Part shown: positions 17,913-64,000 of the stretch, one piece after another
Position numbering within the stretch: position 1 is the stretch's first letter
Layout: each line of letters begins with the position of its first letter
Sequence record: PP892526.1
DNA from: Escherichia phage vB_EcoM_I14.1
DNA: 64,000 nucleotides
Direction: 5' to 3' (one strand)
Notes under the pieces: generated by a model
Database searches by the model: none
What the model was told of the DNA's origin: nothing
What the model saw: only the letters and a program-made list of their open reading frames with translations
Program-made: the position numbers and the translations under genes

Positions 17913-18212
17913 TTAATCTGCCAACCTTAAATTAAAATTAACACCAAATTTTTCACATACTTCCAACATAAACTTAAGAGAAACATTACCAGTGAGATTG
18001 ATTATGTTGGATACACGAGACTGAGAGATACCACAAATTTTAGCAACTTGCTCTTGAGAAAGGCCTCTGGATTTAATCTCTCTCTTAAAACGATGTGCAA
18101 CGAAGTCTCTCATTTCGTCTACATCCATTGGACAAATATAACTCTCCATTTCAGCCTCTCTGTCAGCCTCCCAATCATCTTGTGGAGCATAAGGGTCAAA
18201 AACCTCATTCAT
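17913..18212 (-). CDS. helix-turn-helix DNA-binding protein (Cro/C1-type)
   Basis: LSQEQVAKICGISQSRVSNIIN resembles XRE-family HTH; start taken at internal Met (ORF track 18242). Confidence 0.4.
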   Translation of the reverse strand: MNEVFDPYAPQDDWEADREAEMESYICPMDVDEMRDFVAHRFKREIKSRGLSQEQVAKICGISQSRVSNIINLTGNVSLKFMLEVCEKFGVNFNLRLAD

Positions 18213-18418: not shown

Positions 18419-18802
18419 TCAAATACCTGTGCAGCTTCTGTTTTCTAAGAAATACTCAACACCATACATAGCTTTTTGCATCAAATCTTCTTTAAACTGA
18501 ATACGATGATTAAGCATAGCCTGTACATCAATATCATCATGGTGCTTCTCTTTAATATTTGCAGATTGCAGGAAATACTCTGCAAGAACACGATACTGAT
18601 AGTCAGTTACCTTGTCAGTCATCTCTGTTAAAGATTCTTCAGAGATTGGTTTAAGTAACTCACCATTAGCCAAAGCAACACCTTTAACAATCTGGCAAGT
18701 ATCTTCTGGAACACCTGATAAGTCCACATTTGGAAGTTCTGTTGCATTGACTGGTAAATTCATTGCCATAACCATTGCAGCAGCTAATAAAATCTTTTTC
18801 AT
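18419..18802 (-). CDS. secreted/periplasmic protein
   Basis: N-terminal signal peptide MKKILLAAAMVMAMNLPVNA; first gene of leftward operon. Confidence 0.4.
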   Translation of the reverse strand: MKKILLAAAMVMAMNLPVNATELPNVDLSGVPEDTCQIVKGVALANGELLKPISEESLTEMTDKVTDYQYRVLAEYFLQSANIKEKHHDDIDVQAMLNHRIQFKEDLMQKAMYGVEYFLENRSCTGI

Positions 18803-18846
18803 AATGACCTCAAAGTTATATTAAATTTTGTATTACATTGAGTATA

Positions 18847-18892
18847 AAAATAAGCTATAACACCTGACTTGTCAACAGATTTTATAGCTTAT
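18847..18892 (-). promoter_or_regulatory. leftward promoter embedded in an 11-bp perfect inverted repeat (operator candidate)
   Basis: Minus strand TTGACA-N17-TATTTT; arms ataagctataa (18850-18860) and ttatagcttat (18882-18892) flank the -35. Confidence 0.4.
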
Positions 18893-18910
18893 TTGGCAGA
18901 TTTTTTATAA

Positions 18911-19450
18911 GGCTACTGCCATCCTTCCATACCTTACCACACCAAACCACACCATACCGAGCCACACCCTACCAGACCCTACCAAACCCGACCGAGCATC
19001 ACTTAAAAATCCTCTTAGAAGACTCTTAAGTGATGTAATCGAATTTTAATGTAGCTCCGATTAACTACCCATACCTCACCTTACTTAACCGTACCGCACA
19101 GAACCACACCAAACCTAACACCACTTCTCATCACCTTATTAAAAACCCTGTTTAAAGACCTTTTAAAAAGATGAGTCTCATTTTAATGTAGATGAGACTA
19201 ACTACCCGCACCGAACCTCACCTGACCTGACAGCACCCGACCTCACCGCGCCATACCATACCATACTTCACTTAAAAATCCTCTTAGAAGGCTCTTAAGT
19301 GATGTAATCGAATTTTTATGTAGCTCCGATTAACTACCCGCACTTTACCAAACCTCACCCTACCCTACCAGACCTTACCTAACCGCGCCGTACCTCATTA
19401 AAAGACCCTCTTAAAGACCTTTTAAAAAGGAGCCTCCGAAGAGGCTACCT
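18911..19450. repeat. tandem array of four ~110-160-bp composite repeats (G-poor CA-rich tract + A/T-rich palindrome + hairpin with conserved loop)
   Basis: Unit ends at 19070, 19207, 19339; units A and C share a ~70-bp near-identical block; unit B keeps loop ttttaatgtag and tail aactaccc with a different stem. Confidence 0.6.
19420..19448 (-). terminator. intrinsic terminator for leftward two-gene cassette
   Basis: Minus strand hairpin gcctc-ttcg-gaggc followed by tccttttt, just past the stop of 19458..19898. Confidence 0.5.
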
Positions 19451-19457
19451 AGTCAAC

Positions 19458-19898
19458 TTAGAAAGGTTTTCTACGTTGCTTATTAATGTTAGCTTTCATA
19501 GCAGCTAAATGGTTTTGCTGTTCAATCAGTCGTGAGCGTTCTTGATGGCTAAGTGCCATAGTGTTCACATTCTCAATCGCTTGAGTGGCTTGCTTTAAAG
19601 CTCGACCAATCTTGCCAGACATTTTACGTTTTGCAATAGTTGCTTGATGCTTAGGTTCAACCACACGATAACCAACACCCATTGAAGCAACCAGATAAAT
19701 CTTCTCTTCTTTAAGAAGCTTCTCAATAAACTTCTCAAGTCGGTTTAGACGTGTAAGCGCATAAGCCTTCATTTCATCTTCGTACTTAACAATGTCACCT
19801 TGATAAGTTGGCTTCACAATACCTAAGAATGTGTCCATCTCAGAATGTGATACAGTGTCACCGTAACTAAACTTTGCTGCTAATGCTTTTGTATTCAT
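19458..19898 (-). CDS. hypothetical protein (repeat-flanked cassette)
   Basis: 146-aa ORF followed by leftward intrinsic terminator. Confidence 0.4.
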   Translation of the reverse strand: MNTKALAAKFSYGDTVSHSEMDTFLGIVKPTYQGDIVKYEDEMKAYALTRLNRLEKFIEKLLKEEKIYLVASMGVGYRVVEPKHQATIAKRKMSGKIGRALKQATQAIENVNTMALSHQERSRLIEQQNHLAAMKANINKQRRKPF

Positions 19899-26077: not shown

Positions 26078-26137
26078 TTTTACTCCCTCTAAAATCATTA
26101 ACCTCATACATTACTGCAAAAAATTATAAAAAGCAAG

Positions 26138-26334
26138 TTGACAATGTACTTGACAAGGTGTTAATCTTTGCGAAGTGGGTTTTTACTTAAAAGGTTACTT
26201 AACAGTTTAACTATACAGATACTTTAAAACTCTTAAAAGATTATTTAATAGCTTTTAAAAAGCTTTAAAGTATAACGTATAGAATACGTTAAGATAAAAG
26301 ATTAAAACTTAATAGTTACTTAAAAGAGGCTTAC
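26138..26334. promoter_or_regulatory. divergent regulatory region between DNA polymerase (leftward) and rightward cluster
   Basis: Two TTGACA hexamers 12 bp apart; AT-rich; dyad taacgtat-agaa-tacgtta near 26270-26300. Confidence 0.3.
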
Positions 26335-26757
26335 ATGCAGAAAATGTTTGTTCACCCAGACATAGCTAACTTTGTTAGGGCTTTGCAGAAGTTGGAAGAA
26401 CTTGACATTGCTGCTCAACGGGAATATGCTCACCATCACAGGAGAATGGTTGATATACAACATGAAATAGAGTTGTCTGAAAACTATGAAGATGACTTAA
26501 AATGCTCTGTATTTGAGCATATGAAAGATGTTGCTACAGCGAGACGTAAAGCTAAAGACACAGTTGCTTTACTAGATTCTCTTAAAAAGAGGTTGCAAAG
26601 TGGTACAGACCTGTGTAATCTAGCGTCACTGATTAACGATGTTGAAACTTCTTGGGATAGACATTACTATCCACGTTCTGAAAAGACACTTGACTTTTCT
26701 TCATCAGAAAACTTAAAATGTTCTAGAAAGAAACTTAACCAACTGAGAGAGAAATAA
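26335..26757 (+). CDS. hypothetical protein
   Basis: 140-aa ORF, first gene of rightward cluster. Confidence 0.35.
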   Translation: MQKMFVHPDIANFVRALQKLEELDIAAQREYAHHHRRMVDIQHEIELSENYEDDLKCSVFEHMKDVATARRKAKDTVALLDSLKKRLQSGTDLCNLASLINDVETSWDRHYYPRSEKTLDFSSSENLKCSRKKLNQLREK

Positions 26758-52035: not shown

Positions 52036-52047
52036 TAAGTAATTTCT

Positions 52048-52078
52048 TAAAAGGCTGCTTCGGCGGCCTTTTTTATTT
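52048..52078 (+). terminator. intrinsic terminator after rIIB
   Basis: aggctgc-ttcg-gcggcct followed by tttttt. Confidence 0.55.
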
Positions 52079-52135
52079 GTATTTTGTGCAGAGTGCTGTA
52101 TAATTGTTGTCACGATAAACTAAACAGGAGAACCA

Positions 52136-55690: not shown

Positions 55691-56476
55691 ATGGGTATTG
55701 TAAAAATCATCAATGGGGATATCTTCTCCGCATTTGATAAAGGTAAGTTTGATATCATTGGTCACGGTTGCAACTGTATGAACTTAATGGGTGCAGGTAT
55801 CGCTGCCAAGATTTCTAAACTTTACCCAAAAGCATATGAGACCGATACAGAAGTTTATCTGTATGCAGGTGGTATAGGCCACAAACCCTGTGAAAATTTA
55901 CTAGGTAATTTCTCTGTAGCACGTTTAGAACAAGGCCGTATAGCTAACCTTTACACTCAGCTTAAGACTGGTAAAGATGCCCGATACAGTGCTTTAGAGT
56001 CATCTTTGAAACAGCTTAACAGATACTGTGAAGTCAATCAGTTGAAGAAAGTTGGGTTACCTATGATTGGTGCAGGTATCGGTGGACTAGACCCTCAAGC
56101 CGTCGCAGTTATCATTAATCAGGTGATGAAGAGTGTAGATGTGTATCTGTATGTCTACGAAGGCGAGATGTACCACAAGTTACGCTCAGGTTGGAAGAAC
56201 TACTGTGAACCAGAATACTTTGCAGGTGTAGTAATGTTCACAGATGATACAGTTACCCTCTTCAGACGAAGAAAAGGTAAGATACATCAAAGTAACCCTC
56301 CGGTTGAGAAGATGTCTCTAAGTAACGCTCTAGTTACCCACCTGTCGAAGAGCAATCACAGAATTGCAGTAACATTTGGCAGTGATGCAGATACATATAT
56401 CTATGCAAGAACTGATGAGGATGTTGAGGAAATTTTCTCTTCACCGGAAGTTACCTTCTTAGACGCAAAGAACTAA
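55691..56476 (+). CDS. macrodomain protein (TARG1/DarG-like ADP-ribose hydrolase candidate)
   Basis: N-terminus VKIINGDIFSAF...FDIIGHGCNCMNLMGAGIAAKI resembles recalled TARG1/OARD1 signature (CISEDCRMGAGIA). Confidence 0.5.
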   Translation: MGIVKIINGDIFSAFDKGKFDIIGHGCNCMNLMGAGIAAKISKLYPKAYETDTEVYLYAGGIGHKPCENLLGNFSVARLEQGRIANLYTQLKTGKDARYSALESSLKQLNRYCEVNQLKKVGLPMIGAGIGGLDPQAVAVIINQVMKSVDVYLYVYEGEMYHKLRSGWKNYCEPEYFAGVVMFTDDTVTLFRRRKGKIHQSNPPVEKMSLSNALVTHLSKSNHRIAVTFGSDADTYIYARTDEDVEEIFSSPEVTFLDAKN

Positions 56477-56539
56477 GAAACTCTGTAGAATATTCACAAT
56501 AGACTAAGCCTTTCTTATCTGGTAAATTTTTCAGGTAAG

Positions 56540-56760
56540 GAGGGCTTTTTCATTTCAGGATTGTGCAGGCAGAGTTCTGTAGAGAAATCTGTAGAGAAAA
56601 TTTTGAACTCCAAAGAGAAAATTCATTTTCAAACTGTGCAGGTAATCTCCAAAGAGCTTTTTCATTTTCAAAACGTGCAGACCCCGCTCAGGTCGGGCAA
56701 GAAAAATCATTTTAGAATTGTGCAGGTAGGTGGGTGCAGGTGGGGATGTCGCCATTTCTC
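56540..56760. repeat. cluster of 4-5 direct repeats with core (t)TCATTTtCA(a)a(a)TGTGCAGG
   Basis: Copies near 56548, 56620, 56662, 56705, plus gtgcagg again at 56735; ORF-free, upstream of first early promoter. Confidence 0.5.
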
Positions 56761-56904
56761 ACAAGGCTACCACATCTGGAAATAAAAGTCAACAGAAAAA
56801 TTTGTAGCGGATTGAAAAATAATTCTTGATTATAGTTCTGTTTTGTGGTAGTCGCGTGCGCCCGTTTCATTACAGTTTTTGCAAAAATATTTTTAAAATT
56901 TTTC

Positions 56905-56993
56905 TTGACTCTCTGACTATGGTTATTTAATATTTGCATCAACGGGGGGCGATGACCTCCCAGCTAACTAACCTTAAACTAGGAGATTCAAAA
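56905..56993 (+). promoter_or_regulatory. early promoter plus conserved leader hairpin and RBS (cassette 1)
   Basis: TTGACT-N17-TAATAT, then aacggggggcgatgacctccc hairpin, then ccttaaactaggagattcaaaaATG. Confidence 0.55.
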
Positions 56994-57374
56994 ATGGCTT
57001 ATCGTGCACCTAAATTCATCAACAAAGACAACTTTCGCAACGTACTGGAGAAGGCACTTGATGAAAAATTTAACGGTAAAATAATTGTTGTTCATGCGTT
57101 CAATTTCAAGTATGATATCAACGGGAATAAAATCAACCATTACACGGCAACCATGTTAGATGGTACGCTATCAAGTGAAAAAGCCGTACTGAATGCACTG
57201 GCAGGACGTGGTAAAAACCTGATAAAATGCGATAAGAGACGTTATCAGGGCGGCGCATATGGTTACGATGATGCTGTTTACCATCTTGAAAATATGGGCT
57301 ATTCAGTGGAAAAAGCTGGAATATCTCAAATAATCGGCAGTGACGGCTATGTGACAATTTTCAAAATTAACTGA
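56994..57374 (+). CDS. early small protein, hypothetical
   Basis: ATG behind conserved ccttaaactaggagattcaaaaATG; promoter 56905-56933 upstream (ORF track 56934). Confidence 0.45.
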   Translation: MAYRAPKFINKDNFRNVLEKALDEKFNGKIIVVHAFNFKYDINGNKINHYTATMLDGTLSSEKAVLNALAGRGKNLIKCDKRRYQGGAYGYDDAVYHLENMGYSVEKAGISQIIGSDGYVTIFKIN

Positions 57375-62961: not shown

Positions 62962-63017
62962 CAACGGGGCTAAATAGCCCCAGATACCTTCACAGCCCCA
63001 TTTAAGGGGCTTTTTTA
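62962..63017 (+). terminator. tandem hairpins with T-run; strong intrinsic terminator closing the early array
   Basis: ggggct-aaat-agcccc, then agcccc-attta-aggggct followed by TTTTTT. Confidence 0.65.
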
Positions 63018-63019
63018 CG

Positions 63020-64000
63020 TCTATGTAATAGCCTCTATACAATCCCTTTCCTTTCCTTTCCAGAATCTTACTAGACCTTAAAAGCAATAACTCTATAGTC
63101 TACTCTATAATCTCTTATCAAATCAACTTAAATAAAAGCCCATAACCCGAAAGGGAAGGGTAACCGTTTAAACGCTCTATAAAGCTCTATAACAGCCTTA
63201 TCAACCTAACTTAAGGGATTGCATTAACTCACCCTAAAAAGCCCTTTATAAAGCTTCCTAGAGCCTTAAAAGAATCTTATAAGGGTGTAAGCTTTATTAT
63301 CTCGTTAGTTCCTTGTGAATAACTAGAAAGGGCTTGTTAGTGTCTTAAAAGTATGTTATAGGGGCTATAAAGTTACTTCAAAGTTACGTAAAAGTGGTTT
63401 AAAAGTTACGTAAATGCTAGCCCCCTTAACATTTTCTTAACAATTTCTTAACAACCCCTACATAGTTATGCTTGTTAGCAACTTGTTAGCCCCTTGTTAA
63501 ATCTCTGTTAAAACCACGTAAAAGCCTTGTAAGAGTCTTTAGCATAGCCTTTAAAGCCCCTGTAAAGCCCTATAAATAGCTTTCTGTATAGTTGGGGTGT
63601 AATTACTAGGGAGAGACTAAAAAGAGCTTATAAGGAGCTATAGAAAGCTTTTAAGAGGGCTATTTAAAAGGTCACTAAGAAAGGAAAGGGAACGATAAGA
63701 AAAGAGATAGTGACCATGTTAATAGCTTGTTAAAAAGATTAAACACTTGTTAGGAACTTGTTAATTATCTTAACAAAATAACTCTTTAAAATTAACTTGT
63801 TAGCTCTTGTTAGTCATCTGTTAAGATTCTATAAAGACCATGTAGCAACTGTTAAGAAACTGTTACACCCTTGTTAGTTCTGTTAAGAATCTGTTAAGAC
63901 CTCTGAAGAGATGTTAAGAGGTTGTAAGAACTGTTAAGAGATTGTTAAGGATATTTTAAAATTCTGCAAAGGGGATGTTACAGGGATGTTAAGGGCTACC
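63020..64000. repeat. ORF-free, repeat-dense non-coding region (ctctata, acgtaaa and TGTTA word families)
   Basis: No ORF of 60 aa or more on either strand; ctctata x5, aaagttacgtaaa x2, 21 copies of TGTTA. Confidence 0.6.
63850..63995. repeat. helically phased TGTTA(A/G) iteron array
   Basis: TGTTA starts at 63850, 63861, 63872, 63881, 63892, 63912, 63932, 63943, 63976, 63987 (spacings 11, 11, 9, 11, 20, 20, 11, 33, 11), plus a tgtaag variant at 63923. Confidence 0.6.

Follow-up and report, generated by a model that had tools for sequence, protein, structure and literature searches.

A conserved direct-repeat array, putatively protein-binding, in the control region of Felix O1-type phages

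What does a cluster of direct repeats do when it lies between the end of a long transcription unit and the first early promoters of a phage of the Felix O1 type? The initial annotation of this locus offered two candidate roles, an iteron-type origin of replication and an array of binding sites for a regulator. Phages of this type are classic tools for typing Salmonella, and cocktails for biocontrol and therapy make wide use of them. According to the Felix O1 genome paper, the temporal regulation of their transcription is not known; direct repeats of 24 bp or more are given there together with several promoters and terminators, and the array considered here is not in that list. Our literature searches on iterons and origins in Felix O1 or the Ounavirinae did not turn up any account of the array, the 8-mer at the end of the repeat was matched by primer sequences only, and no replication-origin mapping for Felix O1-type phages was found in the literature searched. 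Of the non-coding motifs that we found where the host-takeover gene block begins, the array is conserved most sharply, and it offers a concrete experimental handle on early-gene control, replication start or DNA entry.

The window, that is, the whole stretch of 64,000 nucleotides that was analysed, is 100% identical to Escherichia phage vB_EcoM_D4 (PP886228.1, Felixounavirus; hereafter D4), and window positions, which are used throughout unless the record is named, equal D4 record positions minus 25,363. The D4 genome of 89,439 bp has a direct terminal repeat of 581 bp (record positions 1–581 and 88859–89439). The direct terminal repeats obtained for D4 with PhageTerm (PMC11737134) match this repeat at the record ends, and repeats of 608 bp were determined in the relative UAB_Phi87 by Bal31 digestion and run-off sequencing (PMC4837284). 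The array occupies record positions 81908–82089, at a distance from the right end of 7.3–7.5 kb or some 8% of the genome. It is thus neither a genome terminus nor a packaging (pac/cos) site, being separated from the 581-bp terminal repeat by about 7 kb.

The repeats are located in a 517-nt non-coding gap inside a 37-kb block of plus-strand transcription. Few conserved non-coding gaps of the genome are larger, and none in the long plus-strand unit is. Upstream of it are the genes of the primase/helicase, an exonuclease, ribonucleotide reductases, NAD salvage, rIIA and rIIB, and then a macrodomain gene (55691–56476, plus strand, annotated as "phosphatase"), which is the last gene of the unit and directly precedes the array. 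Its product of 261 aa consists of a Macro domain and a C-terminal domain of about 100 aa, the latter found in the closest homologues only. On the downstream side, the genome continues to its end with small genes that have no known function, and every annotated gene between the array and the end encodes fewer than 190 aa.

Reading of the sequence from 56541 to 56760 confirmed the repeats claimed for this interval as four full copies and one partial copy. The full copies, all on the plus strand, are at positions 56545–56569 (CTTTTTCATTTCAGGATTGTGCAGG, 33.7 bits), 56618–56642 (AAAATTCATTTTCAAACTGTGCAGG, 33.4 bits), 56657–56681 (CTTTTTCATTTTCAAAACGTGCAGA, 33.8 bits) and 56702–56726 (AAAAATCATTTTAGAATTGTGCAGG, 30.4 bits); the first of them is present in all genera. 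The partial fifth copy, GTGCAGG (56734–56740, plus strand), has no TCATTTT half. The four copies between positions 56545 and 56726 have one orientation and the consensus WWWWW-TCATTTTCAA-nnT-GTGCA-GG, and their 25-nt core is bipartite and asymmetric, with an A/T run followed by TCATTTTCA and then by GTGCA. The common end TGTGCAGG that had been given for the repeats does not extend to copy 3, which ends in CGTGCAGA. This bare 8-mer has no statistical significance by itself. A 20-mer with at most 3 mismatches has 3 matches against 0.03 expected, all of them within the array.

We described the anatomy of the unit from 72 instances in 18 phages of four genera (Felixounavirus, Suspvirus, Mooglevirus and Kolesnikvirus). 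The unit consists of an A/T pentamer, T-CATTT(T/C), six variable bases, GTGCA and then GG. GTGCA is invariant in all 72 instances, and the register from the C of CATTT to the G of GTGCA is exactly 12 nt in 71 of them. The Erwinia phages have TA instead of GG after GTGCA. A weight matrix built from 29 instances, none from D4, was scanned over both strands of the whole 89,439-bp genome; the four D4 copies scored 30.4–33.8 bits and the best other genomic site 16.4 bits, a value that we estimate to be near the chance expectation over 179,000 positions. This weak look-alike (52040–52105) follows rIIB, is made up of a terminator (GGCTGCTTCGGCGGCC and T6) and then ATTTGTATTTTGTGCAGAGTGCTGTATAAT, and overlaps a TATAAT promoter-like element.

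The spacing from GTGCA to GTGCA is 73, 39 and 45 nt in D4. The corresponding values are 73–77, 39–41 and 45 nt in the phages of E. coli, Salmonella, Shigella and Citrobacter, 37, 37 and 39 nt in the Erwinia phages, and 75 and 45 nt in the Si3-like phages, which have three copies. The double-length interval of 73 nt between copies 1 and 2 contains a tandem TCTGTAGAGAAA x2 (56576–56599, plus strand; TRF), and the Erwinia phages have a full copy at 37-nt spacing in its place. By inference, the tandem may be the remnant of a lost or decayed repeat copy.

Absence from relatives, which the initial annotation named as a finding that would speak against its reading of the repeats, was not observed. 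The array was detected in 291 phage records, as compared with 302 Ounavirinae records, some of them partial genomes, in which the DNA polymerase has at least 60% amino-acid identity. The motif, the 12-nt register and the copy number are kept in Felixounavirus, Suspvirus, Mooglevirus and Kolesnikvirus, with four copies conserved and three in the Si3-like phages. Between genera, identity is 85–89% in the motif cores, 56–77% in the spacers between copies and 60–71% in the adjacent 3' end of the macrodomain gene; where D4 is set against phages of other genera, the respective values are 85–87%, 60–77% and 62–64%. The cores are better conserved than either the spacers or the coding DNA next to them, a sign that the motif is under purifying selection and not in neutral decay. 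The spacers change in sequence at fixed lengths; for example, the spacer between copies 3 and 4 may have CCCCGC or AAAAAT. When D4 is compared with the Erwinia phages, the array is the only intergenic part that BLAST aligns. Judged from these data and the searches described next, the array is a specific, selected feature of the Ounavirinae subfamily.

In IMG/VR, a single-copy pattern gave mostly chance matches, and a two-copy pattern gave Ounavirinae-like contigs and unrelated coding repeats, and nothing else. In bacterial genomes the two-copy pattern found only unrelated interspersed repeats of 21/42 bp, located between housekeeping genes in MAGs of Ignavibacteriales and Prevotellaceae. The Pakpunavirus MAG1, a distant relative with the macrodomain gene, has no comparable gap after that gene. 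In Si3, finno, EcoM2 and phiWec172 the switch from unrelated to near-identical sequence falls inside the array, which indicates recombination joints there.

The gap had initially been described as free of ORFs. This does not hold for the GenBank annotation, which places three tiny CDS here in the D4 record (56563–56715, 56734–56829 and 56826–56930), but it does hold in that the ORFs spanning the repeats have no coding signature. Similar small CDS are called over the gap in the records of Felix O1, Mordin and Bas63. The earlier explanation of the six-frame ORFs as products of the repeats proved correct: the motif has no stop codons in five of the six frames and creates ORFs mechanically. We rejected a coding reading of the repeat-spanning ORFs, since the open frame shifts with the spacings of 37/39/41 nt and none is kept across genera. 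At would-be wobble positions the motif is no more variable than elsewhere, and GTGCA is invariant there; the two downstream CDS lie within the promoter block. The small CDS annotated across the gap are probably annotation artefacts, and the analysis of the gap thereby also flags small CDS in many GenBank records as probably spurious. A structured RNA was rejected as well, with fold z-scores of −0.14 and −0.42 and an alignment consensus of −2.19 kcal/mol; an Rfam search of the array gave only matches far below the gathering scores.

An intrinsic terminator found by the terminator scan (56506–56550, plus strand) has a 17-bp stem, an 8-nt loop and a T-run; its RNA fold has an energy of −25.8 kcal/mol (z = −6.54), and the 5' portion of repeat copy 1 consists of this T-run. 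After copy 4, a variable segment of 59 nt (56725–56783) precedes a conserved AT-rich block (56784–56864, plus strand), which is 78–82% identical between genera and 94% identical between D4 and Felix O1. The variable segment of the D4 type is G-rich and includes the partial fifth GTGCAGG, and that of the Felix O1 type has a 30-nt C-rich polypyrimidine tract. C-rich tracts are also found in Suspviruses, Moogleviruses and Kolesnikviruses, and a shorter C-rich stretch in the Erwinia phages; the D4-type segment has 36–42% identity to the others. The two Felixounavirus versions of the segment are unalignable yet identical in length (59 nt).

Within the AT-rich block we distinguish a candidate promoter, P1 (56826–56854, plus strand), predicted from TTGATT (56826–56831) as the −35 element, a 17-nt spacer ending in TGn and TAGTCG (56849–56854) as the −10 element, followed by a GC-rich discriminator, cgtgcgcccg (56855–56864). 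It should be noted that the promoter scan did not list P1, whose −10 element is weak, and that P1 was read directly from the sequence and the alignment. The discriminator would account for the GC-rich segment that had been noted after the repeats; the segment is real (gtcgcgtgcgcccg, 56851–56864) but is situated 125 nt past the last repeat, in a separate conserved promoter-like block. On the minus strand, a −35-like TTGACT (56792–56787) is followed 17 nt on by TAGCCT (TAAGAG in other clades), and this site could, speculatively, drive transcription back into the array.

The promoter scan gave a strong sigma-70-type promoter, P2 (TTGACT-17-TAATAT, 56905–56933, plus strand), with an AT-rich upstream region, and according to the alignment its −35 and −10 elements are kept across genera. 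To call it the first early promoter is reasonable, since the leader behind P2 is found again in front of the small genes downstream. The first small early gene (56994–57374, plus strand; 126 aa, PHROG 4495, unknown function) is preceded by this leader and ribosome-binding-site cassette. From the last GTGCA of the array (56720) the distance is 106 nt to the −35 element of P1 and 185 nt to that of P2. The distance to P1 is 106 nt in all 12 Felixounavirus sequences compared, even over the non-homologous 59-nt segments; the distance from repeat to promoter is 100–102 nt in four Susp-/Moogle-type sequences and 210 nt in the Erwinia phages, where it was taken to the only obvious promoter.

Invariant words, a fixed register, a conserved number and spacing of copies and free spacer sequence point to recognition sites for a protein, and we put the probability that this is a protein-binding DNA array, a conserved direct-repeat array in the control region of the phage, at about three in four. 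The idea of a cis-acting array contained in the initial annotation is therefore well supported, through core conservation, the 12-nt register, copy number, spacing and presence in about 291 records. As for its role, our tentative preference is that the array controls or insulates the first early promoters, since it is situated between the terminator and the promoters in every genus and since the 106 nt to P1 are held across non-homologous segments within Felixounavirus.

Under this model, the four sites of the same orientation would all be recognised by one and the same sequence-specific DNA-binding protein, and the two conserved words, 12 nt apart and hence about one helical turn, would fall into consecutive major grooves. 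Spread over about 190 bp, four protomers would make up a nucleoprotein block beginning at the terminator that closes the long replication and nucleotide-metabolism transcription unit and ending 100–180 bp upstream of the tandem promoters P1 and P2, which would open the block of small "host-takeover" genes reaching the genome end. Such a block would control P1 and P2, by activation on entry and/or by later shut-off, and would shield them from upstream read-through. We infer that the binder would belong either to the core proteins of the phage or to the host proteins conserved in the Enterobacterales and that the output would be transcriptional.

The position upstream of promoters thus fits the regulator array initially proposed, but no consensus of a known factor matches it. 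Consensus patterns for Fis, IHF, CRP, OmpR, LexA and DnaA showed no enrichment in the array, nor did scans of the array for the oriC 13-mer, Chi and GATC, the last of which is absent. Sites for sigma-54, sigma-E and EcoKI, the marbox, the ARG box and ops were dismissed by eye. Neither of two candidate binders that we tried was successful. The only annotated helix-turn-helix regulator, an HTH_3 gene (17916–18212), was rejected as the binder because no counterpart was detected in the Erwinia phages, although these have the array. Several further observations count against regulation of the promoters. The motif is absent from many other early promoters, and so it is not a general early-gene operator; the spacings of 37–45 bp do not correspond to whole helical turns; the promoters lie at distances that vary by genus, as given above; and the −10 element predicted for P1 is weak. 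Arrays of sites upstream of promoters are known from Fis at rrnB P1 and from p4 of phi29 between early and late promoters. The present array resembles them in having several sites 100–300 bp upstream of a strong sigma-70 promoter at a transcription-unit boundary, with one promoter combining a GC-rich discriminator and an A/T-rich upstream region; it differs from them in the lack of a known consensus, in the absence of helical phasing and in being missing at other early promoters.

The other readings were weighed against this one, and the most substantial of them is an iteron-type or other initiator-dependent origin, in which the four repeats would be the sites of an initiator, with opening or transcriptional priming in the nearby AT-rich promoter DNA. 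Iterons are found in lambda-type phage origins and in plasmid origins (P1, F, R6K, pSC101), where they are bound by Rep- or O-type initiators. At least three direct repeats of about 17–25 bp are expected there, and D4 has four bipartite, asymmetric 25-nt cores, all on the plus strand, unique in the genome and conserved in copy number; like iterons, they are direct sites of one orientation over two major grooves, close to AT-rich DNA and promoters. The large conserved non-coding gap near AT-rich DNA with tandem promoters would also suit an origin, as would the duplex stability of the AT-rich block, whose best 40–60-bp windows are within the least stable 0.25–0.45% of the genome, and repeats in an intergenic region between modules characterise many phage origins (lambda ori, T4 oriE, lactococcal phage ori). 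The T4 oriE iterons and the lactococcal origin repeats, with a proposed role in initiation in virulent phages, are, compared by description, similar intergenic clusters next to promoters; those, in contrast to the present array, have been linked, firmly or by proposal, to a protein or a priming transcript. The iteron proposal thus keeps its direct repeats of one orientation, but it fails on spacing, DnaA boxes and initiator. The copies are 37–45 (and 73) bp apart and not about 22 bp; the G/C-rich segment of 59 nt parts them from the AT-rich block; DnaA-box matches are at chance level, with no DnaA boxes in the array and no GATC; and no Rep-, O- or DnaA-like domain was found in the macrodomain gene and the eight genes downstream (the check covered these nine flanking genes and the one helix-turn-helix gene directly, and the remaining genome through its annotation only). 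The replisome annotated here has a fused primase/helicase and a family A polymerase, a type that usually starts from transcripts and not from iterons. GC skew tracks the direction of transcription and is uninformative on the array, and better compositional candidates for an origin exist at positions 26099–26335 and 18802–19458. Indirect evidence against an origin comes from Bas63, where the array, annotated as bas63_0096/0097 (64,142–64,457), is within the 46–66-kb segment that a knockout preprint calls uniformly non-essential in a text that does not name these two genes individually. Overall, we regard an origin at the array as somewhat less probable than control of the promoters, and as the main alternative to it.

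Much lower still we rate the remaining readings. In one of them the repeats would act in a transcript, made by read-through from the macrodomain gene or leftward, as protein sites, a Rho-loading region or a sponge. The region is unstructured on both strands, as expected for linear protein-binding or rut-like RNA, the conserved minus-strand −35-like hexamer, with a hexamer starting in TA 17 nt on, points into the array, and a C-rich tract follows the array on the plus strand in most genera; yet a very strong plus-strand terminator precedes the array, the minus-strand −10 (TAGCCT/TAAGAG) is weak and the promoter-like site is absent from the Erwinia phages, the D4-type phages have G-rich sequence in place of the C-rich tract, and no Rfam family matches, all of which makes an RNA-level element quite improbable. 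A stop or pause of DNA injection as in T5, with the array as the inner boundary of the first 7.3 kb or so (8%) to enter, so that the host-takeover genes would be expressed ahead of entry of the remaining DNA, is a very improbable reading. The distance of about 7.3–7.5 kb (~8%) from the end with the 581-bp repeat would suit it, as would the run of small genes, functionally uncharacterised and equipped with promoters of their own, from the array to that end. The annotated iss of T5 is likewise a conserved non-coding region after a terminator, filled with families of direct repeats, about 8% of the genome from the end and conserved above its flanking genes. T5 iss (NC_005859; 10.1101/866236) has direct-repeat families of 4–9 copies, including families of 4–6 copies at 23–81-bp spacing, one with a TGTGCAAATCCGAC core; the region of about 1.2–1.7 kb is placed in a 10-kb terminal repeat and contains large inverted repeats, palindromes and paired DnaA boxes (10.1101/866236). 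The D4 array, by contrast, is 190 bp of direct repeats only, outside any long terminal repeat, with no paired DnaA boxes and no large inverted repeats overlapping the repeats; the D4 matrix scored at best 1.7 bits on the T5 iss region, and the shared TGTGCA, beyond which there is no likeness of motif, is just a 6-mer. None of the annotated genes from the array to the end, all under 190 aa, is as large as T5 A1. We know of no report of two-step DNA entry in Felix O1-like phages, and none was found in the literature searched. Least probable of all, in our estimate, is that the array has no function of its own and consists of leftovers of tandem duplication of terminator-proximal sequence, serving as a homology "linker" for module recombination. 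The overlap of copy 1 with the terminator T-run and the recombination joints inside the array in Si3, finno, EcoM2 and phiWec172 agree with such an origin of the repeats, but the motif cores are more conserved than neighbouring coding DNA in four genera, the register is nearly fixed (71/72) with an invariant GTGCA, and the spacers turn over in sequence at fixed lengths.

A more far-reaching possibility, and a very remote one, is that the array is a T5-like staged-entry stop in a contractile-tailed phage, or the assembly site of a new Ounavirinae-specific DNA-binding protein that defines an initiator-independent origin or boundary. If either were true, the terminal block of about 7.3 kb would be a physically or temporally separate "pre-early" compartment.

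The two regions with better origin-like composition have the following features. Window positions 26099–26335 are a divergent intergenic region between the DNA polymerase gene (minus strand) and the long plus-strand unit (primase side). This region has the least stable 100-bp duplex of the genome, at about position 26219, and also the minimum of the cumulative GC skew, and it is filled with CTTAAAAG, TTACTTAAAAG and TTTAAAG words; by composition it is a candidate for an origin and/or divergent promoters. Positions 18802–19458 form a repeat-rich, unannotated gap of 656 nt inside the minus-strand block of replication genes. Three units of about 79–186 nt are present there, each with a run of ACC-containing heptamers (e.g., CCTACCAGACCCTACCAAACCCGACC) and then a palindrome of about 40 nt (CATCACTTAAAAATCCTCTTAGAAGACTCTTAAGTGATG). 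The edge of this gap is among the five least stable 40–60-bp duplex windows of the genome, and the gap could be an origin or a packaging-type element.

Short repeated words are also dense around the genome ends. The 581-bp terminal repeat and about 1 kb around it (window 63000–64000, record 88,440–89,439; also record 1–1,030) are non-coding and contain CTTGTTAG, CTGTTAAG, TATAAAG and CTTAAAAG, and some of these words are common to the polymerase/primase intergenic region.

Downstream of the array, the leader and ribosome-binding-site cassette of about 60 nt (56938–56995, ...CCTTAAACTAGGAGATTCAAAAATG) recurs at no fewer than seven sites before the small early genes, its further sites being at L001 7487, 8085, 8766, 9633, 10857, 11420 and 12425. 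Promoter-plus-hairpin cassettes (TTTACA...GGGGCTTA/TAAGCCCC) are located between the recurring leader cassettes. Mobile promoter–stem-loop cassettes are known from T4-type phages, and the early-gene cassettes observed here resemble them.
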